A DNA stretch of 59,177 nt, taken from positions 1 to 59,177 of the forward strand of contig JBHHUC010000007.1 of NCBI GenBank assembly GCA_046861395.1, read 5' to 3'. The first letter of the stretch is position 1. Every line of letters begins with the position of its first letter. The translations under genes were made by a program, and so were the position numbers. Below the pieces are notes generated by a model, which was not told the origin of the DNA, made no database searches, and saw only the letters and a program-made list of their open reading frames with translations. Origin of the DNA: Fidelibacterota bacterium. GTDB lineage: Bacteria > Fidelibacterota > Marinisomatia > Marinisomatales > JABMOV01. This document shows positions 31,880 through 49,909 of the stretch, in pieces.

Positions 31880-33453
31880 GACGGCTTACCCTGTTACTGG
31901 TACTGACTCTGGGTTTTAGTCAGACACCCCGGGAATTCCGGTTACAACATGATCGCAGGGCCACCAATGGCTTGTTAAGCAATATAGTTTCTGAAATCGT
32001 ACTTCAGGGTGATTCACTGGTTTGGCTGGGAACGGGGAAGGGGATTGCCCGCGTCCGAGATTCCCTTACCATTGAAAGTCTGGATACTCTCAGCGTTGGT
32101 CCCGACCGCGTTCCAATGACATTTGGCATATCTGCCATTACCGCCGACAGCAGTAATCTCTTTTTTGCTTCGGCCACAAATGATGGTGATGTTTCGGTGG
32201 GCGGCGGTATTTATTATTCCACCAATGCCCGGGATTCCCTGCCCACCTGGACATATTTTCCACAACCAGTGGATGGTGCCGGAGATAGCATTCCTCCCAT
32301 CGGGGCGTGGTTTTTCCGTGCTTTACCCGTTACAACCGACCATCAAAACGTTACTTATGACGCCAGCCTGTTCGGTCGTTATTTATGGATTGCCAGTTGG
32401 GCCGGTGGAATCCGGCGCTATGATCTGACCAGCAATTCCTGGGATCGGATTCCCCTGCCGGAAGATGGAGAACAAAAATTAATTACCTGTGCCGATTCAG
32501 CCTATGTATTGTCCGGTGGGAAAGAAATATTGAAGGAATTTTATCTCAATCCCAGGGATCCATCCGGTGGCGGGAACCATAATCATAAAGGATTTTCCGT
32601 ACTGGCCTATGGCGATACGATCTGGGTTGGTACGGCCAACGGTATCAATCGTGGTCTCATTGGCGCCGGCGGCTGCGTCGACTGGCAACACTATTTTTAT
32701 CCGACCAATAATATTACCGGAAATTTCGTGGTTGGTCTGGCGAAGCAGGACTGGAACGGCCGAAGACGGATTTGGGCGGCCTGTCTGAATGCCGATGATC
32801 CGACGGAGGAACGGGGTTTATCATGGACTGACAATGATGGGTTGACCTGGCACAGGACCCTGGTTGGCGAACGTATTTATAATGTAGTGACTCAGGATTC
32901 CATTATTCTGGCCGCTTCCGACCGGGGGTTGTGGAAATCGGAAGATGGCGAAACTTGGGCCTTGTTCCGTCCTGCCCGTGATGGGACACCCTTGCAATCG
33001 GATGAAATCCTGAGCGATGAAGTCTATGCTGCAGCCCTGGATGTGCGTCTCTATTATCCGACTCCCGTAATATGGATAGGAACCGGTGACGGATTGGCCC
33101 GGTCCCGTGATCTGGATGGTTCGGCCTGGAAAATTTTCCGAACGGAATACAATCCGAATCAGATCTATGCCTATCCCAATCCCTTTTCGCCCGATGTCCA
33201 TAATATTCAGGGCGACGATGGTTATGTGCGCATTCATACCGATGTCAAGACCTCTTTCGTGATTGATATGGATGTGTATAATTTTGCCATGGAACATGTG
33301 GTACGACGGAAATATGACCGTACCACCGGAGATGGAACCCTGAAGTGGAATGGCCGGGATGCTTCCGGCCGCCGAGTGGCCAACGGGACGTATTTTATCC
33401 GTCTGAAATACGACACGAAGACGGAATGGATTAAGTTAATCGTATTGAAATGA
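31876..33453 (+). CDS. Beta-propeller protein with FlgD-type CTD (PorZ-like architecture)
   Basis: Repeated W.GT..G blades and Asp-boxes (S.D.G.TW). C-terminal YAYPNPFSP...WNGRD..G..VANG.YF. Confidence 0.75.
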   Translation: MRRLTLLLVLTLGFSQTPREFRLQHDRRATNGLLSNIVSEIVLQGDSLVWLGTGKGIARVRDSLTIESLDTLSVGPDRVPMTFGISAITADSSNLFFASATNDGDVSVGGGIYYSTNARDSLPTWTYFPQPVDGAGDSIPPIGAWFFRALPVTTDHQNVTYDASLFGRYLWIASWAGGIRRYDLTSNSWDRIPLPEDGEQKLITCADSAYVLSGGKEILKEFYLNPRDPSGGGNHNHKGFSVLAYGDTIWVGTANGINRGLIGAGGCVDWQHYFYPTNNITGNFVVGLAKQDWNGRRRIWAACLNADDPTEERGLSWTDNDGLTWHRTLVGERIYNVVTQDSIILAASDRGLWKSEDGETWALFRPARDGTPLQSDEILSDEVYAAALDVRLYYPTPVIWIGTGDGLARSRDLDGSAWKIFRTEYNPNQIYAYPNPFSPDVHNIQGDDGYVRIHTDVKTSFVIDMDVYNFAMEHVVRRKYDRTTGDGTLKWNGRDASGRRVANGTYFIRLKYDTKTEWIKLIVLK

Positions 33454-34379
33454 ATAAAAATATTCTCATATTATTCCTGATCTCCGGCTTGCTGATGGCG
33501 GCTACGAATATCGCTGGTTATTCAGGCTCCTTCCTGCGCATGGGGACCACGGCTCGTTCCATGGCCATGGGGTCAGCCTTTACGGCCGTCATTGACGATG
33601 GTTTTGCCTCGTATCATAATCCGGCCGCCCCGGCTCTTTTTTCCCGTCCACAGGTATCCGTGATTCATCATGCCCTGCCCCTGGACCGGCAATTGACTGC
33701 CGTGGGATTTGGGACGAAACTTCCGCCGGCGGGCGGAGTCAGTCTGGCCCTGTTGCGCACTGCGACGACGGGGATTGATGGCCGAACCTCCTCGGGAGAA
33801 AAAACCGGAGTGCTAACGACCAGTGAAATGGCCCTTTTTATCGGGTTTGCCCAACAAATCAAACCATGGCTGGCGGTGGGTGCCAATCTCAAAATCATGT
33901 ATCATTATTTACCCCTGAATGCCGACAATCTTAAGGGAAATGGCAGTGGGTTTGACATTGGTATCCTGGTACGATTACCCAAGGATCGGCAAATCGGATT
34001 GGTGGTTCAGGATCTGAATTCCGGTTATCACTGGAACAGCGGAAATGTTTTCGCCGAAGGGGGGCCGTACAAAGATGTATTCCCCGCCAGTTATCGTTTG
34101 GGGATATCCACGCCGATAAAAATGTTCCGCGTGACGGCGGATGCCGGTGTTTACATGGATGGCGGCACTTATCTGGCACCCCTTGTCCGGGCCGGAGTGG
34201 AATATACCTATCGTGATCAATATTATATGCGGGCCGGGTTCGGCAATGGTCGGGTGGCCTTCGGAACGGGATTGAAATACCGTTTTCGACATCCAGATGA
34301 CAGTACCATTGATTATGCCATAGCCATCGATGCCACATCCGGAATCAATCATATATTAACATTCGGGTTTTCTTTTTGA
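33450..34379 (+). CDS. PorV/PorQ-family outer-membrane barrel
   Basis: FLRMG..ARSMAMG.A..A......YHNPA motif. C-terminal FGFSF. Confidence 0.85.
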   Translation: MNKNILILFLISGLLMAATNIAGYSGSFLRMGTTARSMAMGSAFTAVIDDGFASYHNPAAPALFSRPQVSVIHHALPLDRQLTAVGFGTKLPPAGGVSLALLRTATTGIDGRTSSGEKTGVLTTSEMALFIGFAQQIKPWLAVGANLKIMYHYLPLNADNLKGNGSGFDIGILVRLPKDRQIGLVVQDLNSGYHWNSGNVFAEGGPYKDVFPASYRLGISTPIKMFRVTADAGVYMDGGTYLAPLVRAGVEYTYRDQYYMRAGFGNGRVAFGTGLKYRFRHPDDSTIDYAIAIDATSGINHILTFGFSF

Positions 34380-35242
34380 ATACCCGGATTTCATTTATTC
34401 TTATCATCCTGGTTTCGAGTCTGTTTGCCATTGGATCCGGATTTCTTGCCATTCCGACCACCGCGGAGAATCTAGCTGTGGGTGCCCAGCCAACGTTTTC
34501 ATCATCAGTGCCGGTAAATCCGGCCGGGTTGATGCACCGTATGCAACCGCAACTGCAACTAAGTCATGGTACCTGGCTGGCAGGCACGCAGTCCACCACG
34601 ATTTTTTATACCACCGATCGCCTTGGGGGAACCTTCGGCGTTACCGGCCGCTATGTGGCGTTGCAGGGACTGGAATACCGGACCGACATTCCCACCGATG
34701 ATCCGCTGGCGACCTTTGACAGCTACGGGGCCTTTCTGCAGGCCCAATATGCCCGGTCCCGTAACAATATTCGCTGGGGCATTGGTGTGAAAGCGGTCAA
34801 TATGTATATCTCTGCTTTTCATACCCGGGGACTGGCTCTGGATGTCGGCCTGATTCAATCTTTGGGAAAGGAATTGAAAGTCGGAATATCCCTGTTGAAC
34901 CTGGGAACCTTTTCGTCGTGGGAGGGACGCCAGGCCCGATTTCCCCGCCGGCTTTCTGTCGGGGTGGAGAAATCCTGGGAAGCATCCCTGTTTCGTCCCG
35001 TGCTGTTGGCTAGCCTGGAATCCACGACCCAGACAAAAGGTATCATCGCCCGCCTGGGGGGACAGGTGCAATGGAAACAGTTAATTCTGAATCTGGGGTA
35101 CGAACACAGTGATGGTGTTCAGTCCCTGTCATCGGGTCTTGGCATTCGCACCGGTCGTTATGCGATCCAGTACGGTTTTCGGTTCGGGTCACAGGATCTT
35201 ACCATGCCGCAGGTCCTTGATATTGCCATAACCCTGCCCTGA
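34376..35242 (+). CDS. Divergent PorV/PorQ-family barrel
   Basis: FLAIPTTA..LAVG, NPAGL, H..WL, A.DVG, S.LNLG motifs. Confidence 0.75.
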   Translation: MNTRISFILIILVSSLFAIGSGFLAIPTTAENLAVGAQPTFSSSVPVNPAGLMHRMQPQLQLSHGTWLAGTQSTTIFYTTDRLGGTFGVTGRYVALQGLEYRTDIPTDDPLATFDSYGAFLQAQYARSRNNIRWGIGVKAVNMYISAFHTRGLALDVGLIQSLGKELKVGISLLNLGTFSSWEGRQARFPRRLSVGVEKSWEASLFRPVLLASLESTTQTKGIIARLGGQVQWKQLILNLGYEHSDGVQSLSSGLGIRTGRYAIQYGFRFGSQDLTMPQVLDIAITLP

Positions 35243-36060
35243 TGACGTATAAAAAGAAATTTTATTATTCCATTGCGCTGAACGTCGTTCTGCTAGCGGC
35301 CTTTCTGACAGTCATCGTCATGGTATTTCGTCCCGAAAAGGGGCCTGACAAATCGCCGCCCCTTCCGCCGCAGGAAACGGATGTCCTGCCCGCCGCCCGC
35401 GGAATTATCGTCTTAATTATCGATGACTTCGGCTATCGGAATGATGAAATATCGGATGGTTTTCTGGCGCTGGACGTTCCTCTGACCTGTGCCATCATTC
35501 CGGGACATAGAAACAGCGCCGTTTTTGCGGAAACAGCGGTAGGAAAAGGGAAGGAAGTCATTATTCATATGCCCATGGAATCCTATGCCCGGCGGGGTGG
35601 TGAGGATCAATTTGTATTGAAAACCACCCATACCAGTACGGAACTGGAACACCGGATCAGGAAAGCGTTTGATCTCATCCCCCAGGCTGTGGGAATGAAT
35701 AATCACCAGGGGTCAAAAGCGACGGAGGATGTCCGGGTCATGCGGGTCCTGGGACTGACTCTGAAGCACCTGGGGAAATATTTCATCGATAGCCGGACAA
35801 CGGCCAAGACGGTGGGGGAATCCACCATGACCCGGCTGGGCGTCAAAACCCGGCGTCGGAATGTATTTCTGGACAATGAATTCGATCCGGCTCTGATTCG
35901 GGAACAATTGAAGGAATTGGCGGAAAAAGCGGAAGAATGGGGAACGGCGGTAGGGATCGGTCATGCCAAGCGGACTACGCTGGAAGTCTTGCAGGAAGAG
36001 ATCCCCAATTTGGTGGCTCAGGGCTATCAATTCCAATTCGCCTCGCAGGCGGTACGATAG
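35242..36060 (+). CDS. Divergent polysaccharide deacetylase (YibQ-like)
   Basis: IIDDFG, HMPME, GMNNHQGS, FIDSRT, RNVFLDN, IGH. Confidence 0.95.
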   Translation: MTYKKKFYYSIALNVVLLAAFLTVIVMVFRPEKGPDKSPPLPPQETDVLPAARGIIVLIIDDFGYRNDEISDGFLALDVPLTCAIIPGHRNSAVFAETAVGKGKEVIIHMPMESYARRGGEDQFVLKTTHTSTELEHRIRKAFDLIPQAVGMNNHQGSKATEDVRVMRVLGLTLKHLGKYFIDSRTTAKTVGESTMTRLGVKTRRRNVFLDNEFDPALIREQLKELAEKAEEWGTAVGIGHAKRTTLEVLQEEIPNLVAQGYQFQFASQAVR

Positions 36061-36263: not shown

Positions 36264-37976
36264 ATGAAGAACCGAATTATTCTATTCCTTTTCCTGTCAT
36301 TCTCCTGGGCTTCCACGCACCGGATTATGGCTTATAATGTCCTGAACTTCAGCGGAGGTGACGCTGCCAAGGAAAGTGCGCTGCGGATTGTAATTGACAA
36401 TGCCGCCCCGGACATTATCATAACGGAAGAAATCCAGAATCAGGCCGGATATAACGCCTTCCTGGCCAATGTTCTGAATAATGATCAGGGCACCACCTGG
36501 GCCGGGGCACCCTTTACCGATCAAAACCAGACCAATGTGGATATCGCCCTGTTCTATAAACCGGAATTTTTTACCTTCATCAGCACTTCCCGCATTAACA
36601 CAACGTCAACCTACGGTCGGCGGGATGTGATTGAATTCGTCATGCAGCACAATGCCTCGGGACTGATTTTTCGTCTGTACGGCGCCCACCTGAAGGCAGG
36701 ATCAACCACATCCGATGAGAATGAACGAACCGCGGAAGCCACGGAATTGCGCAATTATCTGAATACGCTAGACCCTGAAACACCTTTCCTTCTCGGGGGT
36801 GATTTCAATGTGTACGACAATGCTGAAGGCGGATTTCAGGCCCTGATTGAGTCTCAGAGTGATAATGATGGTCAATGTTTCGACCCGGTCAATCGGATTG
36901 GGGTCTGGCATAATAATTCATCCTATTCCGATGTGCATACCCAGTCATCCCGGGGCGGTAATTATGGCGGCATGGATGATCGATTTGACTGGTTATTCGC
37001 GTCGGCCAGCATTCTCAGCGATACGGATATTAATTATGTGCCGGGTTCATACCAGGCTTATGGGAATGACGGAAATCATTTCAATATGGCCATTAACGAT
37101 GGTTCTAATGCCGCCGTTTCAGCAACAGTCGCAAATGCATTATATGATGCTTCCGATCATATTCCGGTTATACTGGATCTGGAATTCGATGATATTGTCT
37201 ATGCCACAATCCCCATCGTCATTTCGGAAGTCATGGCTAATCCCAGCCGGGTCAGTGATTCCTACGGGGAATGGATCGAATTATATAATAATGATACGGT
37301 GGCCTGGGATTTACAGGACTGGGTCATTCGCGACCTGGGCAGTGATTATCACCAGATTTCCACCAGTCTGGTCATTCAGCCCGGTGATTATGTTGTCATT
37401 GGGCGCAATGGTGACGGAGCCTTGAATGGTGGTGTACCAGTGGATTATGTAGCCAACAGTTTCGTTTTATCCAATACGGAGGATGAAATCATTTTACTGG
37501 ATTCGGTCGGTCGTTATGTGGATGAAATCGACTATACATCGTCCTTTCCCTATGAAAATGGTGCTTCGATGCATATCCGGGAATTTGCCCTTGATAATAA
37601 CGATCCGTCATCCTGGTACACGTCACAGGAGCCCTACGGGGCCGGCGATCTGGGAACGCCGGGCCGGGCCTGGAATCAACCTTTGACCATCAGTCCCGCT
37701 GTCATGTTACCGGCCCGCTTCCAACTGGCGAATCCCTATCCAAACCCCTTCAATCCCCGGGTCACCATTCCTGTAGATATCACTGAGGCAAATGCCTACC
37801 GCCTGTCCCTCTGGAACCTCCAGGGACAAGAAGTGGCAATGGTATATCACGGATTCCTGAATCCTGATTCCTACCTTTTTTCCTGGCATCCCATCAACCA
37901 GGGGGCCGGTGTGTATTTTCTGGTCCTGAAAAGCGGTAGCAGGTCGCAGACGAAAAAAATAATATATTTAAAATGA
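36264..37976 (+). CDS. Secreted endonuclease/exonuclease/phosphatase (DNase I-like) with lamin-tail domain and T9SS CTD
   Basis: YNVLN, EE, HLKAG, GDFN, DDRFD and SDH catalytic set. ISEVMANP..EWIELYN...GTPG lamin-tail domain. YPNPFNP...KIIYLK. Confidence 0.9.
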   Translation: MKNRIILFLFLSFSWASTHRIMAYNVLNFSGGDAAKESALRIVIDNAAPDIIITEEIQNQAGYNAFLANVLNNDQGTTWAGAPFTDQNQTNVDIALFYKPEFFTFISTSRINTTSTYGRRDVIEFVMQHNASGLIFRLYGAHLKAGSTTSDENERTAEATELRNYLNTLDPETPFLLGGDFNVYDNAEGGFQALIESQSDNDGQCFDPVNRIGVWHNNSSYSDVHTQSSRGGNYGGMDDRFDWLFASASILSDTDINYVPGSYQAYGNDGNHFNMAINDGSNAAVSATVANALYDASDHIPVILDLEFDDIVYATIPIVISEVMANPSRVSDSYGEWIELYNNDTVAWDLQDWVIRDLGSDYHQISTSLVIQPGDYVVIGRNGDGALNGGVPVDYVANSFVLSNTEDEIILLDSVGRYVDEIDYTSSFPYENGASMHIREFALDNNDPSSWYTSQEPYGAGDLGTPGRAWNQPLTISPAVMLPARFQLANPYPNPFNPRVTIPVDITEANAYRLSLWNLQGQEVAMVYHGFLNPDSYLFSWHPINQGAGVYFLVLKSGSRSQTKKIIYLK

Positions 37977-38071
37977 TAGTGATTTCACGGTTTTATCCTC
38001 AAACAACGACTCGTAACTTGGACCTCGCCAACTGTATAAAATAATGATCAGATGGAGACATTAATCAATCC

Positions 38072-40231
38072 GTGATGCTTCGTACCCTGACCTTCAATAT
38101 GGCTCTGTTTACCCTCGTGGGGATGGCTTTTGGCCAACTTAACGATACACATCCTTTTTCCCGCCACCCCAAATTAGCTTTCAGTGATGTCTATGATAAA
38201 TATACTTCCGTGGGACAGCTAGGATTGACGGTGACGAATTTTGGTGTTTTAGGGAATGGCTGGAATAAAATTAACGGACGCATCCAACCGTCGTGCGCAT
38301 ACCGTCAACATTCTGAAATTCTGCGGGAAAATATTGAACATTTTTCCTTCGCTGGAATGTGGGTCGGAGGACTGGTTCACGGAGAAAAACGGGTTTCCAC
38401 GGCTATTGTTGACGGTGTATTTGAGTCCGGAGTGGAAGGATTCGAATTTTTTGCCAATTCCGATCTCACAATCCGTTCCTCCATATCCTCCACATCACAG
38501 GATTCCATGGCGCAGTATTATTCCCCTTTCGCCCAATCTCATCAGGATTTTTTATTGAAATTCAAAGATTACGGTGCCGCTCCTGATGATGCTGTGGGAA
38601 TTCCCAATCATATCCCACTGGGAATCGATATTCAACTGACGTCCTATGCCTGGAATTTCTCCTTTGCCGATGCCTTTGTTATATTAAACTACACCATTGT
38701 GAACTCATCCCCGGATACCATCAAGGATATTTATACCGGGATCTGGGCCGATGTTTCCGTAGCCAATATGAACTATACCAGCATTTATATTCCCGGTGGA
38801 GGTTTCACTTGGTCGGACAACCTGGATGGCTTTGATGTATCCCTTGATGAAGCCGGTTATCCCCGGGATATCGGCTATCAATACGATGCCGACGGTGATG
38901 ATGGCTGGGCCGAGTCCTACATCGGGATTTCACCACTGGGGGGGGCCGTGCCGCGGAAATATTTACAGTCCCATTACCAACAGTGGGTGTGGACCAATTC
39001 CAACAATACTGACTATCCATTTTATTCCATGCCCCTAACGGATTTTGAACGTTATGATAAAATGACATCCAATGTACCCAAGGGGTTGCCTGACGATCCT
39101 CTGTACTCCAATGGGTACCCCAACCGACCTGACAGCTGGTTGATGCTGGTGTCCATCGGTCCCTTGGGGTCGGTTCCCATTGCCCCCGATTCGTCATCCT
39201 GGGCTCTTCCGCCCGGTGATACATGTACGGCTGCTTTTACGATCGTGGCCGGATTATGGGCCTCAGCCACAGATAATTCGGCGGCCCGGCGGGAGAATCT
39301 TCATATCAATAAGGACTGGGCGCAAAAGGCCTACGATGGTGAGGATAAAAACCGGAACAATCAACTGGACGAGGGGGAAGATATCAATCTGAACGGCCGA
39401 TTAGATCGATACATTCTGCCTGAACCGCCACCCGTACCCAATATGACACTCAAGGTAGACGATCAATCCGTCATTATTTACTGGCAGAACAATGCCGAAT
39501 CATTCATTGATCCCATCAGTCATGAAAAAGATTTTGAAGGCTATCGTGTATATGGAGCCCGGAAAACCGATAACGGATTGGAAGATGAATTTTCTCTGTT
39601 GGGAGAATTTGATGTTGCGGGAAATGACATCGGGTATAATAGTGGACTTTCCCCCATCCAGATTACCAATGACGAAGGAGAGCCGGATAGTGTATTCATC
39701 GACGGTCGCTATTATCAGTATAAATTTGAGAATGTTGGTGTGAAAAACGGCTGGTTAAATTATTTTACCGTAACAGCATTCGACCGAGGTGATCCGGCGT
39801 CCAATCTGGCCAGTCTGGAAAGTACCATTTATTCCAACCGGAAATATGTTTATCCCGGTGTACGGGCGGATTCATCCTGGAGTGGTTCACCCAGCGTCTA
39901 TCCCAATCCTTACCGGGGACAGGCGGCCTGGGACGGCTACAGTAACCGTGAACAGATGATCTGGTTTCAGAATTTACCGACCCAGGCTGAAATTCGTATT
40001 TTCACCCTGGCTGGAGATTTGGTTAAAACGATAAAACATGATGCAACCTACCAGGGGGGAGATATTCGCAATATTGATCACACCAAACATCCCGTTCTTA
40101 GCGGTGGTGAACATGCCTGGGATCTGATTTCCGAATATGACCAGGCCATTGCTTCCGGGCTATATTTATTTACTGTTGAAAACTTGGAGTCTCACGAAAT
40201 AAAGGAAGGAAAATTCCTTATCATAAAGTAA
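38072..40231 (+). CDS. Secreted hypothetical protein with FN3-like region and variant CTD (TonB-receptor-associated type)
   Basis: Signal peptide. VTNFG, W.GG...VST, DFEGYRVY, YF.VTAFD, VYPNPY...IWF.NLP...IRIFTLAGDLV...ASGLY...GKFLIIK. Dx(D/N)x(D/N) loops. Confidence 0.8.
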   Translation: MMLRTLTFNMALFTLVGMAFGQLNDTHPFSRHPKLAFSDVYDKYTSVGQLGLTVTNFGVLGNGWNKINGRIQPSCAYRQHSEILRENIEHFSFAGMWVGGLVHGEKRVSTAIVDGVFESGVEGFEFFANSDLTIRSSISSTSQDSMAQYYSPFAQSHQDFLLKFKDYGAAPDDAVGIPNHIPLGIDIQLTSYAWNFSFADAFVILNYTIVNSSPDTIKDIYTGIWADVSVANMNYTSIYIPGGGFTWSDNLDGFDVSLDEAGYPRDIGYQYDADGDDGWAESYIGISPLGGAVPRKYLQSHYQQWVWTNSNNTDYPFYSMPLTDFERYDKMTSNVPKGLPDDPLYSNGYPNRPDSWLMLVSIGPLGSVPIAPDSSSWALPPGDTCTAAFTIVAGLWASATDNSAARRENLHINKDWAQKAYDGEDKNRNNQLDEGEDINLNGRLDRYILPEPPPVPNMTLKVDDQSVIIYWQNNAESFIDPISHEKDFEGYRVYGARKTDNGLEDEFSLLGEFDVAGNDIGYNSGLSPIQITNDEGEPDSVFIDGRYYQYKFENVGVKNGWLNYFTVTAFDRGDPASNLASLESTIYSNRKYVYPGVRADSSWSGSPSVYPNPYRGQAAWDGYSNREQMIWFQNLPTQAEIRIFTLAGDLVKTIKHDATYQGGDIRNIDHTKHPVLSGGEHAWDLISEYDQAIASGLYLFTVENLESHEIKEGKFLIIK

Positions 40232-40241
40232 AGGAGATAAG

Positions 40242-43190
40242 ATGAAGAAAATCCTGCTAATACTCTTCATTGGGTTTAGTCTGGCGGGAGCCCAGACTGT
40301 GGATTATGATGCGCAAATCCAACCCATCTGGAATAATAACTGTACCCAATGTCATCCTGGAAGCGGTGGACTGGATTTAACCACGGGGAACAGTTTTGGA
40401 AATCTGGTAGATGTATCGGCGCAAGGCTACTCCGCCCTGCGTGTTGCCAGCGGTGACCCCAGTGGATCCGTTTTGTGGAATAAAATTAATAACACCGGTG
40501 TTTATGGTGGACAAATGCCCCCGGGAGGCATGTTATCTCAAACTGACCGTGATCTGGTGGAAACCTGGATTACGGAATTAGCATCTGGCACGACAATCTA
40601 TGATATTCAATACACAGCTGATGCTTCCGGAGATTCTCCGTTGGACGGTCAGGTAGTAACGGTAACCGCCATTGTCACGGCAGAATTCTGGGGTAGCGGA
40701 AATAAACACATGTTTATTCAGGATGCACCCGGACCATGGAATGGTGTCATGTGCTATCAATCTTCGGGTTGGGACACTTTTTCTTTTGTTGATGATGCCG
40801 GGAATCCCGTTTCTTCGGTTGCCGAAGGTGATTCCATTACCATTACTGCGACTGTAACGGAATACTATGGCATGACCGAATTGGTTGATGCCACGGATGT
40901 GGTGGTACATGGTCCGGCCATGACTCCCATTCCACCGGCTGTGGTGACTCCTGGAGAAGTGGGAACCGGTGGTACCGATGAAGAAGCCTATGAAGGTTGT
41001 CTGGTGGAGGTGCAGAGTGTTTCCGTCGATGATCCTGATCTGGGATTCGGTGAATGGTCCGTCACCGATGGCACCAACTCCGTCAGGTTGGATGATCGCT
41101 GGGATTATTATTATGCTCCCCAGATGGGCCACAGTCTGGCCAAAGTTGTAGGTTGTATGGATTATTCTTTCAGTAACCGGAAAATTCAACCCCGCTTGGC
41201 CCGGGATGTGGTCGAAGCTGGAAATACCCGGATTCAACGGATTCAACAGGTTCTTTACAGTGATCTGTTAACGGCCGGTTCTGATAGTCAATCGGATACG
41301 TCCTACATGCAGGGACAGACGGTGACGGTAGTTGGGGTGGTTACAATGCCCACCGGCCTGAGTTATGCCGGTTCCGGTATTAAATTCATTTTCCAGGATA
41401 CCAGTGGCGGTCCTTGGAGTTCCATTCTCTCCTATGATCCGGATTCAACAGCCTTCCCTGTCCTCTATGAAGGCGATCTGATCGAAGCCACAGGATTTGT
41501 ATCTGAATACTCAACCGGTCCGTCGAACATGACAGAATTATTCATTACCGAACCCATCAATATTCTTGATTTCGGTTTAACGCCACCTACACCACCGCTT
41601 GTGAATACCGGTGATCTGCGCTGGCCTACGGAAGCAGAGCAGTGGGGGAACGTATCGGTTCGGGTTGAAGAAGCCATTGTGATTCAAAATGATCTGCCCT
41701 ATGGTGAATGGTCCATCGATGACGGAACCGGAACCGTCAATGTTGATGATGACTCTGATAGTCTCAATGTCTGGCAAAATGAATTCGGTCGTCCTCCGGT
41801 TGGTAGTTTCATCAGTTCCATTGAAGGTTGGATTTATCATCACTACGGTTCATACAGCGATTCTACGGCCTATAAACTGGAACCGCTATATCCATCGGAT
41901 ATCGTTTTTGGTGCCGGCCCCCCCAATATTATGAATCCTGCCCGGACACCATGTGTACCGGGTACCGCCGATGCCGTGACGATTGAGGTGGATATCGAGG
42001 ATAATTCGACTGTTGCTTCCGCTGAAATTTCTTATTCGGTGGATGGCGGGGCCTATCAATCCGTCGCCATGACCAATACATCGGGACTAACCTGGTCCGG
42101 AGATATCCCTGCGACCGGTACGGAAGGTGCGCGAGTGAACTATTTCATCTCTGCTACTGATGACGGAACGGGACAATCGGCTCCCAAGACCAGCGTGTTG
42201 CCTTATGACACAACAGCCTTTCAATTCGGTTACGTAACGAAGGACGGGCCACTGACCATTGCTGATATCCAGTATACGACCTGGGATTTGGCTGATTCGC
42301 CTTTCAATGGTTGTGAAGTGACCGTGAGTGGAATTGTTACAGCTGATACGGCCCAGGCTTACAGTGGCTATGGTGCTTATGCATTACAGTCCGGTACCGG
42401 ATCCTGGAATGGTATTATTTTCGATCCGGTCGATGGTGTTGAACTCACCCGCGGTGATTCTGTGACCGTCACAGGAACGGTGGAAGAATATGATCCGGTC
42501 TGGCATTTCAAGTATGATAATAATACCAAGCTCATTGATATTACCAACGTAACGGTTCATTCTTCCGGTCATAATGTGGATCCGATGCCGGTAGGTACAG
42601 CCGATCTGGCCCAGGATGCGGATGAAGTAGAGTCTTACGAAGGCACTCTGGTAACCCTCGCGAACGTGACGGTTTCCTCCGTGAATCAGTATGACTGGAG
42701 CGTCGATGACGGCTCCGGCGTTACCTGTTTGATAGATGATGACATGGCCAATGCTGCGGCCGACGGATTCATGAATACGCTGGAAGTCGGAACAACATTG
42801 GCATCCGTAACCGGTGTCTTCAACTTCAGCTACGGATCCTATAAAATTCAGATCCGTGACCTGGCAGACTTGGGTCAGCTGGGTGTTAACGACGACTATG
42901 TTGTGCAACCTATGACGTACGCACTGCATCAGAACTACCCCAATCCTTTCAATCCGGAAACTAAAATCCGGTTTGACTTAGGATCAGCGGAAAACGTGAA
43001 ACTGGTCATTTATGATATCAATGGCCGGGTCATTCGCACCCTGGTGAATGAATCCTTCAGTCCGGGAATGCATCTGGTTAATTGGAACGGTACCAATGAT
43101 TTTGGTGAACCGGTCAGTACCGGAATGTACATTTATCGGATAAAGGCGGGTTCATTCCTGGCTCAGGAGAAGATGCTTTTGGTACGGTAA
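40242..43190 (+). CDS. Secreted protein: c-type cytochrome domain, three tandem OB-fold-pair repeats and T9SS CTD
   Basis: IQPIW..NCTQCH..GGLDL...GDP..S.L..KI...QMPP...WI. Repeats begin TIYDIQ, RIQRIQ and TIADIQ, each with V.V.G/A.VT and E.YEG.LV-type halves. NYPNPFNP...KMLLVR. Confidence 0.85.
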   Translation: MKKILLILFIGFSLAGAQTVDYDAQIQPIWNNNCTQCHPGSGGLDLTTGNSFGNLVDVSAQGYSALRVASGDPSGSVLWNKINNTGVYGGQMPPGGMLSQTDRDLVETWITELASGTTIYDIQYTADASGDSPLDGQVVTVTAIVTAEFWGSGNKHMFIQDAPGPWNGVMCYQSSGWDTFSFVDDAGNPVSSVAEGDSITITATVTEYYGMTELVDATDVVVHGPAMTPIPPAVVTPGEVGTGGTDEEAYEGCLVEVQSVSVDDPDLGFGEWSVTDGTNSVRLDDRWDYYYAPQMGHSLAKVVGCMDYSFSNRKIQPRLARDVVEAGNTRIQRIQQVLYSDLLTAGSDSQSDTSYMQGQTVTVVGVVTMPTGLSYAGSGIKFIFQDTSGGPWSSILSYDPDSTAFPVLYEGDLIEATGFVSEYSTGPSNMTELFITEPINILDFGLTPPTPPLVNTGDLRWPTEAEQWGNVSVRVEEAIVIQNDLPYGEWSIDDGTGTVNVDDDSDSLNVWQNEFGRPPVGSFISSIEGWIYHHYGSYSDSTAYKLEPLYPSDIVFGAGPPNIMNPARTPCVPGTADAVTIEVDIEDNSTVASAEISYSVDGGAYQSVAMTNTSGLTWSGDIPATGTEGARVNYFISATDDGTGQSAPKTSVLPYDTTAFQFGYVTKDGPLTIADIQYTTWDLADSPFNGCEVTVSGIVTADTAQAYSGYGAYALQSGTGSWNGIIFDPVDGVELTRGDSVTVTGTVEEYDPVWHFKYDNNTKLIDITNVTVHSSGHNVDPMPVGTADLAQDADEVESYEGTLVTLANVTVSSVNQYDWSVDDGSGVTCLIDDDMANAAADGFMNTLEVGTTLASVTGVFNFSYGSYKIQIRDLADLGQLGVNDDYVVQPMTYALHQNYPNPFNPETKIRFDLGSAENVKLVIYDINGRVIRTLVNESFSPGMHLVNWNGTNDFGEPVSTGMYIYRIKAGSFLAQEKMLLVR

Positions 43191-43198
43191 AGTTCTCA

Positions 43199-43226
43199 GG
43201 CGGAGTGGAGGTTCCTCCGCTCCGCC
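43199..43226 (+). promoter_or_regulatory. GC-rich intercistronic stem-loop without a U-tract
   Basis: GGCGGAGTGGAG-GTTC-CTCCGCTCCGCC (12-bp stem with one G-U pair), between the stop at 43190 and the ATG at 43236. Confidence 0.7.
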
Positions 43227-43235
43227 CTCATTCTT

Positions 43236-44768
43236 ATGAAAATATATCATTTCATTCCATTCATCATTCTGACGGTGTTTGCCGGGTGTAAACTGTGGCA
43301 ATACGATGACGAATCCGACCCCATTTCGGCCCAGTCCCCGGAAACCTACCTGGCGCTGGTAGCCGGGGATACGATATACCTCGCCGTTGACAGTATTTCC
43401 CAGTGGACCGATCCTGAAACGGGGGAAACACAAAACGATACGGCCTGGGTCTATGATTTTGACGGGAATCCCGATTCACTGCATCAATGGGATACCTTGA
43501 CAGGCGCCTTTTCCACCGTGATGTCCAGCCGGCAGTTCTTGCATTGGTGGGGAGAAGACAGTGATGGTGAAGTAGTGGGATATTACTATAAATGGAGCAA
43601 TGAATCTGACTGGACCTACACGACGGAAGAAGCGCATTTATTCTTCGTTCCCATCCAAACCGATCTGGATATATTTACGTTTCAGGTTAAGGCCATAGAT
43701 CGGGACAGTCTGGTGGATCCTACTCCGGCAGTCATTACGCTCCCGATCCAGAATTCTCCACCGGAAATACATTTCCGGTTCCGCAGTAATCCTCTGGCCG
43801 CTGATATTAACAGCGACACCAGTTTCACTTTTCCCACCCGGACGTTTGTATGGGATTTATATGATCAGGATGGTAAGGAATCCATCGTTGATGTGTTTTA
43901 CGCCTTGGATTCGATCTGTGATTCCTGCTGGCAACAATTGGATGCCGCCAGCTATGCCAGTATAACTCTCACTGGACTTTCGCCGGGATTCCATACGTTT
44001 TACGCCAAAACTAGGGATATCGCAGGGGCCGAAAGCAATATCATCCAATTTCCGGATACAAATAATGTCGATGAGCCGTCCTTCTGGAAAGTCCTGCCCG
44101 TATCTGGAGATGTCCTCATTGTGGATGATTATCCCCAGGATAACGGCAATGTAGCACAGGAGTGGTATAGCAATACCCTGGCCGCAATCGTAGGAGAAGG
44201 GAATTTTTCCGTCTGGGAAATCGGCGATGCATTACCATTTTCCGCCACCGATGTACAGGCCACATTGAGTTATTTCAAGCATGTAATCTGGTATTCTGCC
44301 ACCACCGGCAAGGAGACCTATCTGGATGCCAGCGGAAGTATTCTGGCCTATATTCTGAACGGTGGAAATTTTTTCATCAATGCACCGGAACTGAAAGATT
44401 CCACCTTTACTTGGTTTCCCATAAGCGCCAGTAATGTCATCAATCCCAACGGCCGCTTATTATCAGGGACGGTGCTGGAATCGGATATCAGCGATTCCCT
44501 AGACTTGGAAACATCACAGTTAATCGCCATCCGGGTGAAGCACTTCACACCCGATTCCTTGGTATTTTCATCCTATAACACGTTTTATCGGATTGACGGT
44601 AATATTGTTTCTGCCGGTGGAAAATTTCAGGCTTCACCCACGACCGTTTCCGGGAATGTCGTTCTGTTCTCCATCCCACTGCACAACGGGATTCAACCCA
44701 TCATCGAAGGAAACGGTTCGGCCGCTAAGTTTTTGGAATTTTTGCTGGAGGATTATTTCCTACGATGA
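43236..44768 (+). CDS. Hypothetical lipoprotein with Ig-like domains
   Basis: Lipobox FAGC. PET, W.G.D.DG.V.GY, F.V.AID....DPTPA, N..P.I.F. Confidence 0.75.
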   Translation: MKIYHFIPFIILTVFAGCKLWQYDDESDPISAQSPETYLALVAGDTIYLAVDSISQWTDPETGETQNDTAWVYDFDGNPDSLHQWDTLTGAFSTVMSSRQFLHWWGEDSDGEVVGYYYKWSNESDWTYTTEEAHLFFVPIQTDLDIFTFQVKAIDRDSLVDPTPAVITLPIQNSPPEIHFRFRSNPLAADINSDTSFTFPTRTFVWDLYDQDGKESIVDVFYALDSICDSCWQQLDAASYASITLTGLSPGFHTFYAKTRDIAGAESNIIQFPDTNNVDEPSFWKVLPVSGDVLIVDDYPQDNGNVAQEWYSNTLAAIVGEGNFSVWEIGDALPFSATDVQATLSYFKHVIWYSATTGKETYLDASGSILAYILNGGNFFINAPELKDSTFTWFPISASNVINPNGRLLSGTVLESDISDSLDLETSQLIAIRVKHFTPDSLVFSSYNTFYRIDGNIVSAGGKFQASPTTVSGNVVLFSIPLHNGIQPIIEGNGSAAKFLEFLLEDYFLR

Positions 44769-47539
44769 AACGAATGATACTCCTTTTCCTAATCCTTCAG
44801 GTTAGCTTTGGCCAAACCACAGGATCAATCCAGGGACGCGTATATAATGCGGCGACGGAAGAACCTTTGATCGGGGTCAATGTATTCATCAAAGGAACCT
44901 ATTGGGGTGCTTCCAGTGATTTGGAAGGATATTATTCCATTCGCAACATTGCTCCCGGTGATTATGACATTGAAGCATCCATCATTGGCTATAAAGTCTT
45001 ACTTAAAACCGGAATACATATCAAAAGCGGTGAACGCCTGACCTTGGACTTTCCCATGGAAGAAACGGTGCTGTCTTTAGGGGAAGAAGTTGTGGTGGTC
45101 GGGAAAAAGCCCCTGTTTGATGTCAATGAAACCTCATCCATGAGCCGGATTCGCAGTGAAGATATTGCCAATCAGGCTGTGAACAGTGTGGAAGATATAC
45201 TTTCCGATCAGATTGGTGTCACGACTCAGGATAATGAAATTCATATTCGCGGCGGGCGTATCGACGAAAGTCTGTTCATCGTGGATGGAATGTCAGTAAA
45301 AGATCCCCTGTCCGGGTATTCGGGAAATGTTTTTGTGAATGCGGAAGCAATCGAAGAACTGGAAGTGGTGACGGGAGGGTACAATGCCGAATATGGTCAG
45401 GCCATGTCTGGCATTGTCAATATCAAACTCAAGGAAGGTCGTAAACATTTTGAAGGAGCATTGAAATATACCAGTGATAATTGGGGTCTTACCCGGCAAT
45501 ATATCGATCACGTGAATTCGGACCGGCTGGAATTCAATATCGGCGGTCCGTCCCTGCTGCTGGAGAAATTCCCGGCGCTGCTGGGAATCGATTTACCTGG
45601 AAAATTCTCTTTTTTCCTCAACGGATATGGCAAATCCTATAACGGCTATCTGCCAACGGCCCATCAACTCTACCCCCATCGTTACTGGACGTTACCAGGC
45701 GTGAGCGATAAAACGGCAGATCAATGGAACCAATCCCTCGCCCTGCGGGAAAACAATGATTGGCATGCCATGTATAAATTAACCTGGAATATTTCCGGGT
45801 TAAAAAAACTGGCCTTATCCTATGATATATCACTGAATATTAATCAGGGCTATTTTATGCCACGCGCCTTTTCCAATACGTATTTCCCTTACTCCTATAT
45901 GAAAATCCTGGATTCCTACAACACAATTACGCGGGACACCAGACTCATCAATCTGAACTGGACTCATACCATCAATACGCGCACATTTTACGAAGTGACG
46001 CTCGGCCGGTTTGTTACAATGGAACATAGCGCGGTACAGGATAAACACTGGACCGAGTATCAAGAGCGGTTGGATCTGGAACCGACAAACTATATTCCAT
46101 TGGATTCCGATGGAAATATCAGAATTTACTATGGTGATGAATTCTATGATACCGGGTTTGCTCCGGAGTGGTATGATCTGTTCAGTGACAATTTTCGAAC
46201 CGATTTGGACTGGATCTATCAGGTATCAGAACGCCAGAAAGTGAAAATGGGTTTCGAAAATACTGTTGTTAATCTTCAGGTGTTGGATATTGATGAACCC
46301 TGGGCCGGCAGTTCCGGCTTCGGTGCCAATTATGACCAGTATAAGGTCACAACGACCTATGGTGCGGTCTATATCCAGAATCGCCTGCAATTTGAGGGGA
46401 TGACGGTTAACATCGGGACGAGGTATGATTATTGGTTTCCGGGGAAATACGTGGAAGACGCCATCAATGATCTGAATTCCATAATCATTACCGATGCGGC
46501 TCGGAAGAAATTCCATGATGAAACCTTTGCTTTCGCTGGTTACCGGGGGAAGGGCCGGTTGAGTCCCCGTTTCGGTATTTCACATCCGGTCACGAATAAT
46601 GATGTATTGTATTTCTACTACGGTCATTTTTCCCAGCTGCCCACATTCCAATATGTCTATGCCAAATTGAAATCCAATTCCGAATCCACCTACCAGGTTT
46701 TCGGCAACCCCAACCTGGATCCGAAAACAACGGTTCAATATGAATTGGGAATCAAGCATCGCTTCAGTGAAGACCAGGTTCTGGAATTAAAGGCTTATTG
46801 GAAAGACATGTTTGATTATGAAACGTCCCAGACAATCAAACCGTCCAATCCGAAATATTCATACCTGTCCTTCAATATGTATTTCAACGCGGATTACGCC
46901 CGGGCCCGGGGGATAGAAGCCATTGTGAAAAGCCGGGTCTTCCGGAATTGGTTTGTGGATCTGAATTTTAATTATTCCATTGTGACCGGGAAGAGCAGCA
47001 GTCCCCTGGACAACCTTCTGGTCCAGGCCGGGGAGATCGCGGAAAAACCGCTGGGTGAGAATTTCGTAAGCTGGGATCGTCCAATCCAGACGTTTATGAA
47101 TCTTTCCTATCGTCATCCCCGGGGCTGGGGTGCCACAATTCGCTATGATTATCAAACCGGGCGTCGTTATACACGCTACGTCAAGGGAACCAGTGAATAT
47201 CCTGACGGCTATATTGAGGTAGACGGTGTACGCTATTTCATTGGGACCCAGGAAAGCGATAAGCCATATTTCTATGTTTCCGAGATTCCAGTGAATACAG
47301 TGGATTTAAAACTGTTCAAGACCTATGATTTTGAACGATTCAAACTGAAATTATTACTAGAAGTGGAAAATCTGACTGATATGCGGATTCCACGACGAAT
47401 CAATCCCTATACGGGTCGCGGCTACAATCCCGGCGAAGTCATCGGCTATAATTTAATCAATCAACCCAACCCCAATATCAACCCGGCCCGATTCCGCAGA
47501 CCGCGTTCGGCGGAACTGGGAATACAATTCATTTTTTAA
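44765..47539 (+). CDS. TonB-dependent receptor with N-terminal carboxypeptidase-regulatory-like domain
   Basis: TTG.I.G.V....T.EPL.GVNV, plug HIRGGR..E....VDG, GGYNAEYG.A.SG, SPR.G.S.P, GNP.L.P..T..YE.G, C-terminal F. Confidence 0.95.
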   Translation: MKRMILLFLILQVSFGQTTGSIQGRVYNAATEEPLIGVNVFIKGTYWGASSDLEGYYSIRNIAPGDYDIEASIIGYKVLLKTGIHIKSGERLTLDFPMEETVLSLGEEVVVVGKKPLFDVNETSSMSRIRSEDIANQAVNSVEDILSDQIGVTTQDNEIHIRGGRIDESLFIVDGMSVKDPLSGYSGNVFVNAEAIEELEVVTGGYNAEYGQAMSGIVNIKLKEGRKHFEGALKYTSDNWGLTRQYIDHVNSDRLEFNIGGPSLLLEKFPALLGIDLPGKFSFFLNGYGKSYNGYLPTAHQLYPHRYWTLPGVSDKTADQWNQSLALRENNDWHAMYKLTWNISGLKKLALSYDISLNINQGYFMPRAFSNTYFPYSYMKILDSYNTITRDTRLINLNWTHTINTRTFYEVTLGRFVTMEHSAVQDKHWTEYQERLDLEPTNYIPLDSDGNIRIYYGDEFYDTGFAPEWYDLFSDNFRTDLDWIYQVSERQKVKMGFENTVVNLQVLDIDEPWAGSSGFGANYDQYKVTTTYGAVYIQNRLQFEGMTVNIGTRYDYWFPGKYVEDAINDLNSIIITDAARKKFHDETFAFAGYRGKGRLSPRFGISHPVTNNDVLYFYYGHFSQLPTFQYVYAKLKSNSESTYQVFGNPNLDPKTTVQYELGIKHRFSEDQVLELKAYWKDMFDYETSQTIKPSNPKYSYLSFNMYFNADYARARGIEAIVKSRVFRNWFVDLNFNYSIVTGKSSSPLDNLLVQAGEIAEKPLGENFVSWDRPIQTFMNLSYRHPRGWGATIRYDYQTGRRYTRYVKGTSEYPDGYIEVDGVRYFIGTQESDKPYFYVSEIPVNTVDLKLFKTYDFERFKLKLLLEVENLTDMRIPRRINPYTGRGYNPGEVIGYNLINQPNPNINPARFRRPRSAELGIQFIF

Positions 47540-47540
47540 C

Positions 47541-48542
47541 ATGATGAAGAGATTTCCCATTATCCTCTTCCTACTGACGGTCATGCTGAACGGACAGAAT
47601 TTCTTTCCCATCCTGGGCGGACAAAGGGTCGGAACATCTGTCTTTACTTTTCTGAAGATCGGTGTCAGCGGGCGGGCCATGGGCATGGGGGAAGCCGTGG
47701 TGGCATTGAACCAGGATGCCGGCTCGCTCTATTACAATCCAGCCAGCATAGCCCAATTGAAGAATACGGAACTGATAGCCACGCGCATATCCTGGCCGGC
47801 CGACATCAATTATGATTTTTTCAGCAGTGTAAAACATGTTAATGGTCCGCACTACCTCGGCCTAATGGCAGGGATTCTGCACATGGCGCCCATGATGGAG
47901 ACGACGGAGTATTACCCTCATGGGACCGGAAATTATTTCACTTTTCAGGATCAGTTCTTCGGTCTTGCATATAGCGTACGCATGACGGACCGGTTCAGCT
48001 TTGGAATTACAGTAAAACATGTGCAGGAAGAATTGGCCGGGAACACCATGAGCAATGTTCTTCTGGACATGGGAACCTTCTACTGGACGGGATATAAATC
48101 ATTGCGGTTTTCGGCTGCCTTGACTCATTTTGGGAATCAAACGGCTCCGGAAGGGACCTATGATAAAGTGGTCCTTGATAAAGATACGGGAGAAGAAATA
48201 TTGCTAACGTCCACCTTTACCAATTTTTCACCACCGACCATGTTCCAAGTTGGTGCCGCCATGGATGTTCTTACTAATGATCTGACCGTCGTGACGTTTT
48301 CGACCCAGCTCAATCATCCCGTGGATAATACCGAATACATTGCCACCGGGATGGAAGCCCTGATTTTGGATGTATTATATTTACGTGCCGGATATAAATC
48401 AAATAAGGACGAAGAAAATCTATCCCTGGGGATGGGGTTGCAGATTAAGCTCGGTGCGATGCTGTTTCATGTGAATTATTCCTACACCAATCTGATTCAT
48501 TTATCCGATCCGGTTCGTTTAAGCATTGGAGTATCCTTCTGA
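47541..48542 (+). CDS. PorV/PorQ-family outer-membrane barrel
   Basis: GT....FLKIGVSGRAMGMGEA.VA......YYNPA, D.G..Y.TG...L, LR.GY, C-terminal F. Confidence 0.9.
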   Translation: MMKRFPIILFLLTVMLNGQNFFPILGGQRVGTSVFTFLKIGVSGRAMGMGEAVVALNQDAGSLYYNPASIAQLKNTELIATRISWPADINYDFFSSVKHVNGPHYLGLMAGILHMAPMMETTEYYPHGTGNYFTFQDQFFGLAYSVRMTDRFSFGITVKHVQEELAGNTMSNVLLDMGTFYWTGYKSLRFSAALTHFGNQTAPEGTYDKVVLDKDTGEEILLTSTFTNFSPPTMFQVGAAMDVLTNDLTVVTFSTQLNHPVDNTEYIATGMEALILDVLYLRAGYKSNKDEENLSLGMGLQIKLGAMLFHVNYSYTNLIHLSDPVRLSIGVSF

Positions 48543-49909
48543 TGGTCAAATCATTCGGGTTTTATCCGTTGGTAATTTTAATTCTGCTTACAGGCTGCGT
48601 CGAACGCACACCGTACTATTCCGATGTGAATAATGACAACATTTTCGGAGCCGGAGATACAACCTATGTGCAATTGAGTCCAGTATGGGATGCTGCAATG
48701 GGATTACAAACCCCCATGGACATTTCCATTGCTCAGGACGGGCTACTCTATATTGCCGATTCGGCCGCGCACCGGATTCTGGTTTTGGATCAGGGTGGAA
48801 CACCTCAGCCGGCGTATGATCAACTATCCGGCCTGGTGGATGACCAGGGGCAGACAATCTCTCCGCTAGATGTGGATATTGATAAGAAAATGAATGTGTT
48901 CTTTATTGATGGCAGTGCGCGGGTTTTCTGCTGGAATCATTACTGGAATCAGACCGGGATCGACAGTATAGCCGCTGCTGCGACCTTTGTCCATGAGAAT
49001 GGATCTACCATAACGCTAACAGCCGGGACGGACGAATGGACCGAACTTCTGAATGACCGGGATTGGACTATGACGCAGGTCCAGTGGGCAGCGCCTCAGG
49101 CCAAGATTGATTCACTATTACGACCGCATCTCTTTTATGACGGAGCGAATCCGCGACACAGTTTTACCGACATTCACTACGAATCGGAATTATCGCGGTT
49201 TACGGGGATTACAACTATTAAGGATTTTTCAAATTATATCGTTGTCAGCGATGCTGGGGGAGAAGACAGCACGGATCATCGCTTGCTTCAAATTGATTTT
49301 CAGCGCGTTGACCTGTTGAAATTATCAACCGGGAACTCAGTATGGTCCTTTACCGGAATTTTTGGCCAGACGGTGGTGGAATATGGTACCGGAGCCGGGT
49401 TTGCCAATCATCCAGTGAGCGTAGACGCCGATGAAAATGGAAATCTGTTTTATACACAATTGGGATCGCAATTTGGGGCCCACAAGGTGCGTCCCATCGT
49501 TACTGGCTCCTATGTAACCTTTACTTCCACCTATACGGGAGGAGTCAATGACATTATGGATCTGGGAAGGTTCCAGCAGCCTAGGGACATTGCCGTAGAC
49601 CACAAAGGAATGATCTATATTGCCAATACCGGGGCGCGGGAGATCCAGGTCTTTGACTTTGAAGGTGGTTTCTTCAAGAAAGCCGGCGTGGAGGAGACCA
49701 GAATTGATACAACAATTTGGGTCTTCGATGGCGCCGACAGCACGCTAGTGGATACCATTCTGGTGACGGAAGGTTGGGGGGAGCTGGCCTATCCTTCAGC
49801 CGTCACCGTGGATAATCGTGGGATCATTTATATCTGCGATCCCATTTCCGGCTTGATCCAACGCTATCGTCTATCAAACTTCCTGGATGAGGATTTACAA
49901 CCGAATTAA
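48542..49909 (+). CDS. NHL-repeat beta-propeller lipoprotein
   Basis: Lipobox LTGC. Repeats P.DI....DG..YIAD....RI and F..P.DIAVD..G.IYIA.TG...IQVF. Confidence 0.85.
   Translation: MVKSFGFYPLVILILLTGCVERTPYYSDVNNDNIFGAGDTTYVQLSPVWDAAMGLQTPMDISIAQDGLLYIADSAAHRILVLDQGGTPQPAYDQLSGLVDDQGQTISPLDVDIDKKMNVFFIDGSARVFCWNHYWNQTGIDSIAAAATFVHENGSTITLTAGTDEWTELLNDRDWTMTQVQWAAPQAKIDSLLRPHLFYDGANPRHSFTDIHYESELSRFTGITTIKDFSNYIVVSDAGGEDSTDHRLLQIDFQRVDLLKLSTGNSVWSFTGIFGQTVVEYGTGAGFANHPVSVDADENGNLFYTQLGSQFGAHKVRPIVTGSYVTFTSTYTGGVNDIMDLGRFQQPRDIAVDHKGMIYIANTGAREIQVFDFEGGFFKKAGVEETRIDTTIWVFDGADSTLVDTILVTEGWGELAYPSAVTVDNRGIIYICDPISGLIQRYRLSNFLDEDLQPN

Follow-up and report, generated by a model that had tools for sequence, protein, structure and literature searches.

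The locus at positions 36264..49909 raises the question of which of its genes form a unit and what this unit takes up. It lies in a window of 59,177 nucleotides (the whole stretch of DNA analysed; contig JBHHUC010000007.1 of assembly GCA_046861395.1, forward strand) from a Fidelibacterota bacterium (Marinisomatota, the marine SAR406 group) of the order Marinisomatales, whose genome is referred to here as the host genome. A sequence-only reading had proposed that seven co-directional, closely spaced genes assembled via the T9SS (type IX secretion system) serve the utilisation of extracellular nucleic acid. The seven open reading frames (ORFs) were confirmed at their coordinates, all on the + strand and with gaps of 95, 10, 45, −4, 1 and −1 bp in this order. 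The profile searches with Pfam and NCBIfam from which the domain calls derive also bore out the assignment of the EEP domain, lamin tail and C-terminal domain (CTD), the OB-fold pairs, the TonB receptor, the PorV-like barrel and NHL. The genes are:

36264-37976, + strand: EEP gene, 570 aa
38072-40231, + strand: partner gene, 719 aa (core gene 1)
40242-43190, + strand: OB gene, 982 aa (core gene 2)
43236-44768, + strand: lipoprotein gene, 510 aa (core gene 3)
44765-47539, + strand: TonB receptor gene, 924 aa (core gene 4)
47541-48542, + strand: PorV/PorQ-family barrel gene, 333 aa (core gene 5)
48542-49909, + strand: NHL lipoprotein gene, 455 aa (core gene 6)

The conserved unit is formed by six of these genes (38072-49909), which are syntenic in Marinisomatota, Ignavibacteria, Rhodothermia, Balneolales and some Bacteroidia; sequence comparison indicates that this core is old. 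It probably belongs to a family of SusD-less uptake cassettes that each have their own substrate, and would be specialised for the uptake of extracellular nucleic acid as a nutrient. The nucleic-acid substrate, already part of the sequence-only reading, came out strengthened and is well supported by sequence comparison and structure models, because the OB array is homologous to DUF5689 and ExeM, EEP-OB fusions are found, nuclease-type neighbours recur and the paralogue control is negative.

The order partner-OB-lipoprotein-receptor-PorV-NHL was found in all 31 loci taken around strong OB-gene matches, as far as the contigs reach (one further region taken with them is upstream context). Among the best 80 of 576 loci found with the partner alignment (first set), the OB gene follows the partner in 69 of the 72 with downstream DNA, and the full order to PorV is present in 43 of 51 long loci, the other eight being cut, interrupted or without a PorV call. 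By their record titles, these loci come from Marinisomatota, Calditrichota, Ignavibacteria, Kryptonia, Rhodothermales and several Bacteroidia. Via a Rhodothermia-led receptor alignment a second set of 62 loci was collected; it includes four loci of the first set and adds Balneolales to the carriers. The single-protein search with the 43236 lipoprotein returned one locus. A lone receptor orthologue, with no partner, OB gene or PorV-like barrel nearby, was observed in L267, L268, L270, L277 and L281.

The EEP gene stands outside this block. The seven genes are a slice of 25 + strand ORFs of at least 150 aa that follow one another (15845-54709, sprA included), therefore co-direction alone cannot define a unit. 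EEP is directly 5′ of the core in nine of the 31 OB-gene loci; in six others the six genes are inverted between EEP and the homologue of gene 49887, with EEP head-on to the NHL end (one additional gene separates them in two of the six). In genomes G005, G020 and G025 the core is lost and EEP abuts the 49887 homologue, and G047 and G008 keep EEP in the sprA cluster that precedes it here and have no receptor match. EEP thus stays put in inverted-core and core-less genomes; the core therefore behaves as a block that can invert, relocate or disappear without it, and the seven-gene unit was rejected. The 61 genomes of the host's order (its own included) carry a receptor orthologue in 36 cases and EEP in 30: both in 23, the receptor only in 13 and EEP only in seven. 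Of the 23 genomes that have the two genes, 19 carry EEP next to the core (16 from the window and the loci, three from coordinates), and in several relatives it touches or overlaps the partner gene. Judged from these sequences, 36264 is probably a secreted EEP-superfamily nuclease, an accessory neighbour that goes with the sprA cluster and lies outside the six-gene core, and probably acts as a functional but exchangeable partner of the latter.

An indication of the substrate comes from 40242, a T9SS cargo protein with three OB pairs (six OB folds), one Ig domain and a type A CTD. Its structure model (pLDDT 93.4, alignment of 100 sequences) displays the six OB folds and the Ig domain. A Foldseek search with this model ranked the p204 HIN-dsDNA complex first (E 5.9e-9), followed by CST, RADX, POT1 and RPA, with low whole-chain TM scores all round and Ig-rich chains among the matches. 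The single OB folds reach Z ~11, tRNA-synthetase and MCM domains included. The OB pairs match the N-part of ExeM (E 4.9e-19; 68.6 bits for the ExeM family model, cut-off 300) and, by hhalign profile-profile comparison, DUF5689 (probability 94, E 1.1e-7, 140 columns), whose cut-off is passed by five of 17 OB orthologues scanned. A search of PDB sequences with the OB alignment gave a tail match alone (FlgD). Sequence and model together predict that 40242 is a surface nucleic-acid binder of the DUF5689/ExeM type. Two features in or next to this gene were absent from the sequence-only account:

40293..40586, + strand: cytochrome c-type module, N-terminal in the OB protein, CxxCH at residues 34-38
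43199..43226, + strand: hairpin with a 12-bp GC-rich stem, just 3′ of the OB gene

The cytochrome module has PSCyt1/cytochrome c matches in orthologues L002 and L025, but most OB orthologues align from residue ~115 onward and lack it; the module is mobile and was rejected as an essential part of the OB protein. It is also found on many unrelated Marinisomatota proteins. The hairpin (−26.9 kcal/mol, z −4.9) is conserved in place across phyla, not in sequence: 50 of 53 loci have a stronger fold behind the OB stop than behind that of the partner (median −24.9 vs. −8.8 kcal/mol). It is a candidate internal terminator or mRNA-stabilising stem.

The enzyme encoded by 36264 combines an EEP domain (PF03372, 32.9 vs. 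24.5 bits), a lamin tail and a type A T9SS CTD (TIGR04183, 37.7 bits; 37.3 bits for 40242; cut-off 23). The catalytic N, E, H, GDFN, DRFD and SDH residues are invariant in 13 aligned sequences. The EEP domain has weak ExeM and MnuA matches, and its Atlas placement is generic EEP only. Direct association of EEP and OB domains is found in G012 and G049, which have no core and whose EEP, in the syntenic position, forms a fusion with an OB pair:

L156:6781-8922 and L157:1946-4096: EEP-PKD-OB pair-CTD fusion in place of the EEP-LTD gene, in two core-less genomes

The fused protein is also under the ExeM cut-off (87.6 bits vs. 300). In G008, EEP is followed by endonuclease I and an OB protein. In G002 (L159:7575-15936), the genes after EEP encode LTD/PKD cargo with a cytochrome module, a weak OB protein and a helix-hairpin-helix protein of 817 aa; proteins of this type are reportedly essential for transformation in Riemerella.

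A survey of homologous neighbourhoods, the check that the sequence-only reading had called for, revealed the recurrence of nuclease-type genes. A phosphodiesterase or phosphatase is next to or inside the core in 27 of the 80 first-set loci, a count that omits two cut genes and is based on a far flank visible in only about one third of the loci. These are an EEP orthologue upstream (10 Marinisomatota loci), a 5′-nucleotidase-EEP plus EEP pair (two loci), an EEP upstream in seven Bacteroidia/Rhodothermia loci (three by custom profile only, 180-228 bits), an EEP downstream (two), an OB-PLD protein downstream (four), GDPD (one) and alkaline phosphatase (one). The second set has such neighbours in 29 of 62 loci, two of them shared with the first: EEP downstream in 19 (custom profiles; both of the two checked were confirmed by Pfam), nucleotide pyrophosphatase in four, endonuclease I in one, divergent ExeM-like genes in two and divergent PLD genes in three (by custom profile). 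The enzymes counted in the two sets belong to several unrelated folds. The nuclease-type genes lie on different sides of the core in different lineages, and the PLD neighbours carry an OB pair and have a weak NucT match. The control consisted of 40 paralogous PorV-like loci of the same order, 36 with the receptor in place. Custom nuclease, phosphatase and OB profiles found nothing in the 40 loci save one 22-bit match attributed to the part of the PLD profile that covers the tail, and none of the 89 flank proteins searched (of 112, from 39 loci) matched EEP, PLD, endonuclease I, PhoD, alkaline phosphatase, GDPD or DUF5689. The control flanks carry starch, beta-glucan and peptidoglycan modules. 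Pairing with carbohydrate-active enzymes (CAZymes) or peptidases would have spoken against a nucleic-acid substrate: catabolic CAZymes are nearly absent from the scanned core flanks (a GH2 N-domain 533 bp upstream in L071, a CBM26-DUF5689 protein in L249), and a peptidase of family M4 is inserted, as a counter-example, in three loci.

The UshA-like 5′-nucleotidase-EEP fusion with a second EEP is located upstream of relocated cores in L039 (6958-9841), L025, L027, L029 and L050 (domain calls were made on L039, L025, L027 and L050). A divergent gene of the nucleoside phosphorylase family is found upstream of the core in L010 (894-1826; G056).

The variety of these neighbours leaves room for a broader organophosphate-scavenging cassette, which would import mixed phosphodiesters (glycerophosphodiesters, lipid head groups and teichoic-acid fragments) as a phosphorus source, with nucleic acid as one substrate or none. 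GDPD (L047), PhoD (L067), an alkaline phosphatase inside the core (L049) and patatin (L097) fit such a role; PLD-like and EEP folds include lipid-acting enzymes, and the matches of the 36264 EEP, spanning ExeM/MnuA and nocturnin/CCR4, are all weak. We consider this explanation unlikely: the invariant gene encodes an array of RPA/HIN-like OB folds, the endonuclease I, ExeM-like and 5′-nucleotidase-EEP neighbours indicate nucleic acid, and the PLD neighbours themselves come with the OB pair and NucT likeness mentioned above.

The transport part of the cassette is built without SusD, as the sequence-only reading had noticed, but this is not a special trait of the locus. No SusD family (Pfam) matches among the seven proteins, and SusD/RagB PF07980, the sole SusD model used genome-wide, has no match in the 94% complete host genome (the Bacteroides thetaiotaomicron control was positive). 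Eight further receptor-partner pairs are found in the host genome, six with a PorV-like gene visible behind. By this model SusD is absent genome-wide, and the receptor-partner-PorV trio is generic. The partner 38072 belongs to no Pfam family and has an N-terminal beta-supersandwich, a conserved DFEGY domain and an atypical PorZ-like CTD. Its call as a CTD protein held in part: TIGR04183 (type A CTD) does not match 38072, while PorZ residues 672-757 alone match weakly (E 8.9e-6). The model of 38072 is of low confidence (pLDDT 53.7, 22-sequence alignment) and usable for the fold class of the N-domain only; within this limit the N-domain resembles galactose-mutarotase-like sandwiches (best Z 15.9, root-mean-square deviation 4.2, 264 aligned). 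Paralogues of 38072 adjoin other receptors, and 38072 is a candidate receptor-partner protein substituting for SusD. The receptor 44765 has a TonB plug domain and matches the SusC model TIGR04056 in its N-terminal part only (63.5 vs. 368.25 bits). The barrel 47541 is assigned to the PorV/PorQ family by NF033709 (151.4 bits, cut-off 90) and stays under the equivalog cut-offs of both PorV (47.4 vs. 250) and PorQ (70.7 vs. 220). Both lipoproteins have a lipobox cysteine. In 43236, whose gene overlaps the receptor start, it is invariant in the alignment; this protein has no Pfam or NCBIfam match and its nearest named Atlas cluster, DUF4960 at 0.90, is a lead only. The other, 48542, is the NHL protein (PF01436, E 2.2e-13) encoded by the last gene of the inverting unit.

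The partner also bears on whether the core might import a glycan or another non-nucleic-acid polymer, with EEP as a bystander of the sprA cluster. EEP indeed remains with sprA when the core leaves, the N-domain of the partner is similar to those of glycoside hydrolases and phosphorylases, the Ig domain of 40242 has a weak CBM56 match, OB folds are able to bind oligosaccharides, and there are the three M4 insertions. This reading is quite improbable in our opinion, as CAZymes accompany the paralogous cassettes and, in the flanks scanned, hardly ever the core, the supersandwich lacks a catalytic barrel and is present in the paralogues too, and nuclease-type genes were acquired on one side or the other depending on the lineage.

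Cassettes for nucleic acid have precedents. The statement that no characterised system has this architecture was not supported: ddbABCDEF of gut Bacteroidales is a characterised DNA-utilisation locus without SusD, whose receptor partner DdbD is a DUF5689 protein with a model resembling the HIN domain (PMC12478041). In R. anatipestifer, whose locus RA0C_RS04910-04920 is homologous to ddb, transformation requires a homologue of DUF5689 (PMC8459023). The exact architecture of the cassette was not found described in the literature searched, most subscription papers being outside reach. The cassette shares with ddb and the R. anatipestifer locus a TonB receptor without SusD, a DUF5689-type OB protein and secreted nucleases (predicted ones in the cassette) including EEP, and in both the cassette and ddb the OB protein resembles HIN-domain DNA binders. 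It differs in having its OB pairs in tandem in T9SS cargo instead of a DUF5689 lipoprotein directly after the receptor (the gene at this place codes the PorV/PorQ barrel), in the additional partner, private barrel and two lipoproteins, and in a predicted nuclease that is exchangeable and outside the core. The receptor is also of another clade than the DdbC-like set, which was chosen by the gene order EEP-receptor-DUF5689 and not via a B. thetaiotaomicron sequence. In a FastTree tree, whose deep branches are unsure, receptor and orthologues form one clade (support 100) among PorV-cassette receptors, separate from the DdbC-like clade; profile-profile comparison with the DdbC-like set gave probability 38.5 and 18% identity, a generic TonB-receptor likeness only. 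DdbC orthology was rejected on these grounds, and the cassette would therefore work like ddb but from other parts.

The ten loci with a strong DUF5689 (ddbBCD-like) carry in five cases a tailed protein with the 40242 OB subfamily behind DUF5689 (98-130 bits), 34% identical over 210 residues in one of them. The 36264 EEP subfamily is found in one locus together with the OB subfamily (36% identity), endonuclease I in one and an OB-PLD protein in one. The host genome has elsewhere a DdbB-like EEP (C4:7774), an endonuclease I with a tail (C28:3073) and an orphan TonB receptor between a deoxynucleoside kinase and an SRAP gene (C96:24412-27339 in G000; L211:8416-11340, minus strand).

ExeM of Shewanella and Xds of Vibrio, in which OB and EEP domains are both required (PMC6085458, PMC6746945), have the same lamin tail, YhcR-like OB pair and EEP domains. 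In the cassette these are split over two genes, the EEP is of another subfamily (36 vs. 300 bits), and the proteins have T9SS tails and are linked to an importer. PorZ retains its tail and has PorQ as its anchor (PMC10947112), and type B CTD cargo depend on cognate PorP/SprF-type barrels (PMC12618676). Atypical-tail cargo encoded with its own small barrel is common to these pairs and the cassette, and the pairs set a precedent for tails that stay uncleaved and are retained at the surface; the latter is genetically tied to a TonB receptor and its barrel is of the PorV/PorQ family, not PorP. Marinisomatota genomes were noted in DNA-amended cultures and no importer was named in the available part of that report (PMC8630151).

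Polysaccharide utilisation loci of the SusC/SusD type consist of a receptor, surface binders and hydrolases, and their substrate is set by flanking enzymes. The cassette is likewise composed of a receptor and surface binders with the substrate indicated by flanking enzymes, but it has neither a SusC-class receptor nor SusD, its binders are T9SS cargo and no adjacent regulator was seen.

Several observations weigh against the assignment of the core to nucleic-acid uptake. Over half of the loci are without such an enzyme alongside, most core flanks are unrelated housekeeping genes, and among the neighbours are the M4 peptidase and the GDPD, PhoD, alkaline phosphatase and patatin genes listed above. 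The EEP gene is separable from the core, with no match in 13 of 36 cassette genomes; its product scores 36 bits against the ExeM model (cut-off 300) and its closest solved structures are nocturnin and CCR4, both weak matches. At least five Bacteroidetes-type loci have the receptor alone. The neighbour control was drawn from one order only, kin are not independent, and C112, a paralogous cassette in the host genome, has an EEP two genes away. PF18942 (DUF5689) has no match in the host genome, its own OB protein included, and the C96 receptor joins the DdbC-like side of the tree on a long branch with no DUF5689 partner. Finally, the OB pairs of 40242 are strongly acidic (31-32 D+E vs. 5-9 K+R). 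This acidity was dropped as a decisive objection, its ratio of 3.3 being inside the range of 1.2-4.9 of the host genome's 49 tailed proteins.

Natural transformation, i.e., uptake of long DNA as by the Riemerella DdbC/DdbD homologues and not for feeding, is the least probable explanation: it could draw on the essential R. anatipestifer DUF5689 homologue (PMC8459023), the ComEC of the host genome and the many loci without an adjacent nuclease, but 10 of 14 control genomes have a ComEC match too, no gene for competence was spotted next to the core in the scanned flanks, the nearest receptor clades in the tree serve nutrient cassettes, and recurrent secreted nucleases, nucleotidases and phosphatases fit digestion.

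Taking nucleic-acid feeding as the function, a series of steps can be proposed. EEP, the OB protein and the partner, whose export signals were observed as was sprA, would be exported by Sec and the upstream T9SS. The OB array, by its fold and homology, would bind DNA or RNA at the surface. A secreted nuclease would then cut the bound polymer: here the 36264 EEP, elsewhere enzymes of the PLD type, endonuclease I, ExeM-like nucleases or nucleotide pyrophosphatase. OB and EEP would act as two proteins where ExeM and Xds are one, a fusion that is observed in relatives. The partner might keep its atypical tail and be secured next to the receptor by the private PorV/PorQ-like barrel, replacing the SusD lid; it is the analogy to PorZ-PorQ and type B cargo that suggests this lid-and-anchor step. 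The TonB receptor would import oligonucleotides for salvage and as a source of phosphorus, nitrogen and carbon, and the hairpin after the OB gene might raise the level of surface proteins over that of the transporter.

A wider proposal, which we put forward tentatively and with considerable doubt, is that bacteria of the Fibrobacterota-Chlorobiota-Bacteroidota (FCB) group evolved a second outer-membrane nucleic-acid importer independent of DdbC. It would be composed of a T9SS-cassette receptor, a secreted partner cap held by its own PorV/PorQ-like barrel where others use a lipid anchor, an array of six OB folds at the surface and a nuclease recruited in each lineage, and would provide an old, cross-phylum DNA/RNA route for SAR406, Ignavibacteria, Rhodothermia and Balneolales. 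A large amount of organic phosphorus and nitrogen is contained in extracellular DNA, and few importers of it are known apart from pilus-based competence. If the nucleic-acid reading is true, the six genes would be a conserved marker predicting DNA-foraging in abundant uncultured marine lineages. It is testable in cultured carriers: Roseithermus sacchariphilus (with EEP alongside), Rhodohalobacter sp. 8-1 and Rubrivirga sp. IMCC43871. Through its substrate, the cassette would also offer access to the wider receptor-partner-PorV module, which is unstudied and seemingly replaces SusC/SusD in these phyla.

An Rfam search of 33000-55000 gave no match, and a promoter/terminator scan between the EEP gene and the core found nothing decisive with sigma-70 patterns that may not suit the host phylum. 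In relatives, the right border of the core is formed by a family-less conserved 329-aa protein and a small beta-barrel (49887-51721). The secretion genes lie on the other side:

23824..36060, + strand: T9SS cluster upstream, with sprA, an M28 peptidase, a lipoprotein, a PorZ-like CTD protein, two PorV/PorQ-like barrels and a divergent polysaccharide deacetylase

The order of this cluster is the same in relatives, whether the core is present or not. The SprA model matches with 765 bits (cut-off 200) and the host genome has four C25 peptidase matches. Upstream of sprA are a 770-aa protein without Pfam family (17832-20144) and an M43 peptidase with a MAM domain and a T9SS tail (20276-22978). Within the cluster, a PorZ-like tailed protein is followed by two PorV/PorQ-like barrels (31876-35242), which may be the PorZ-PorQ pair of the host phylum.

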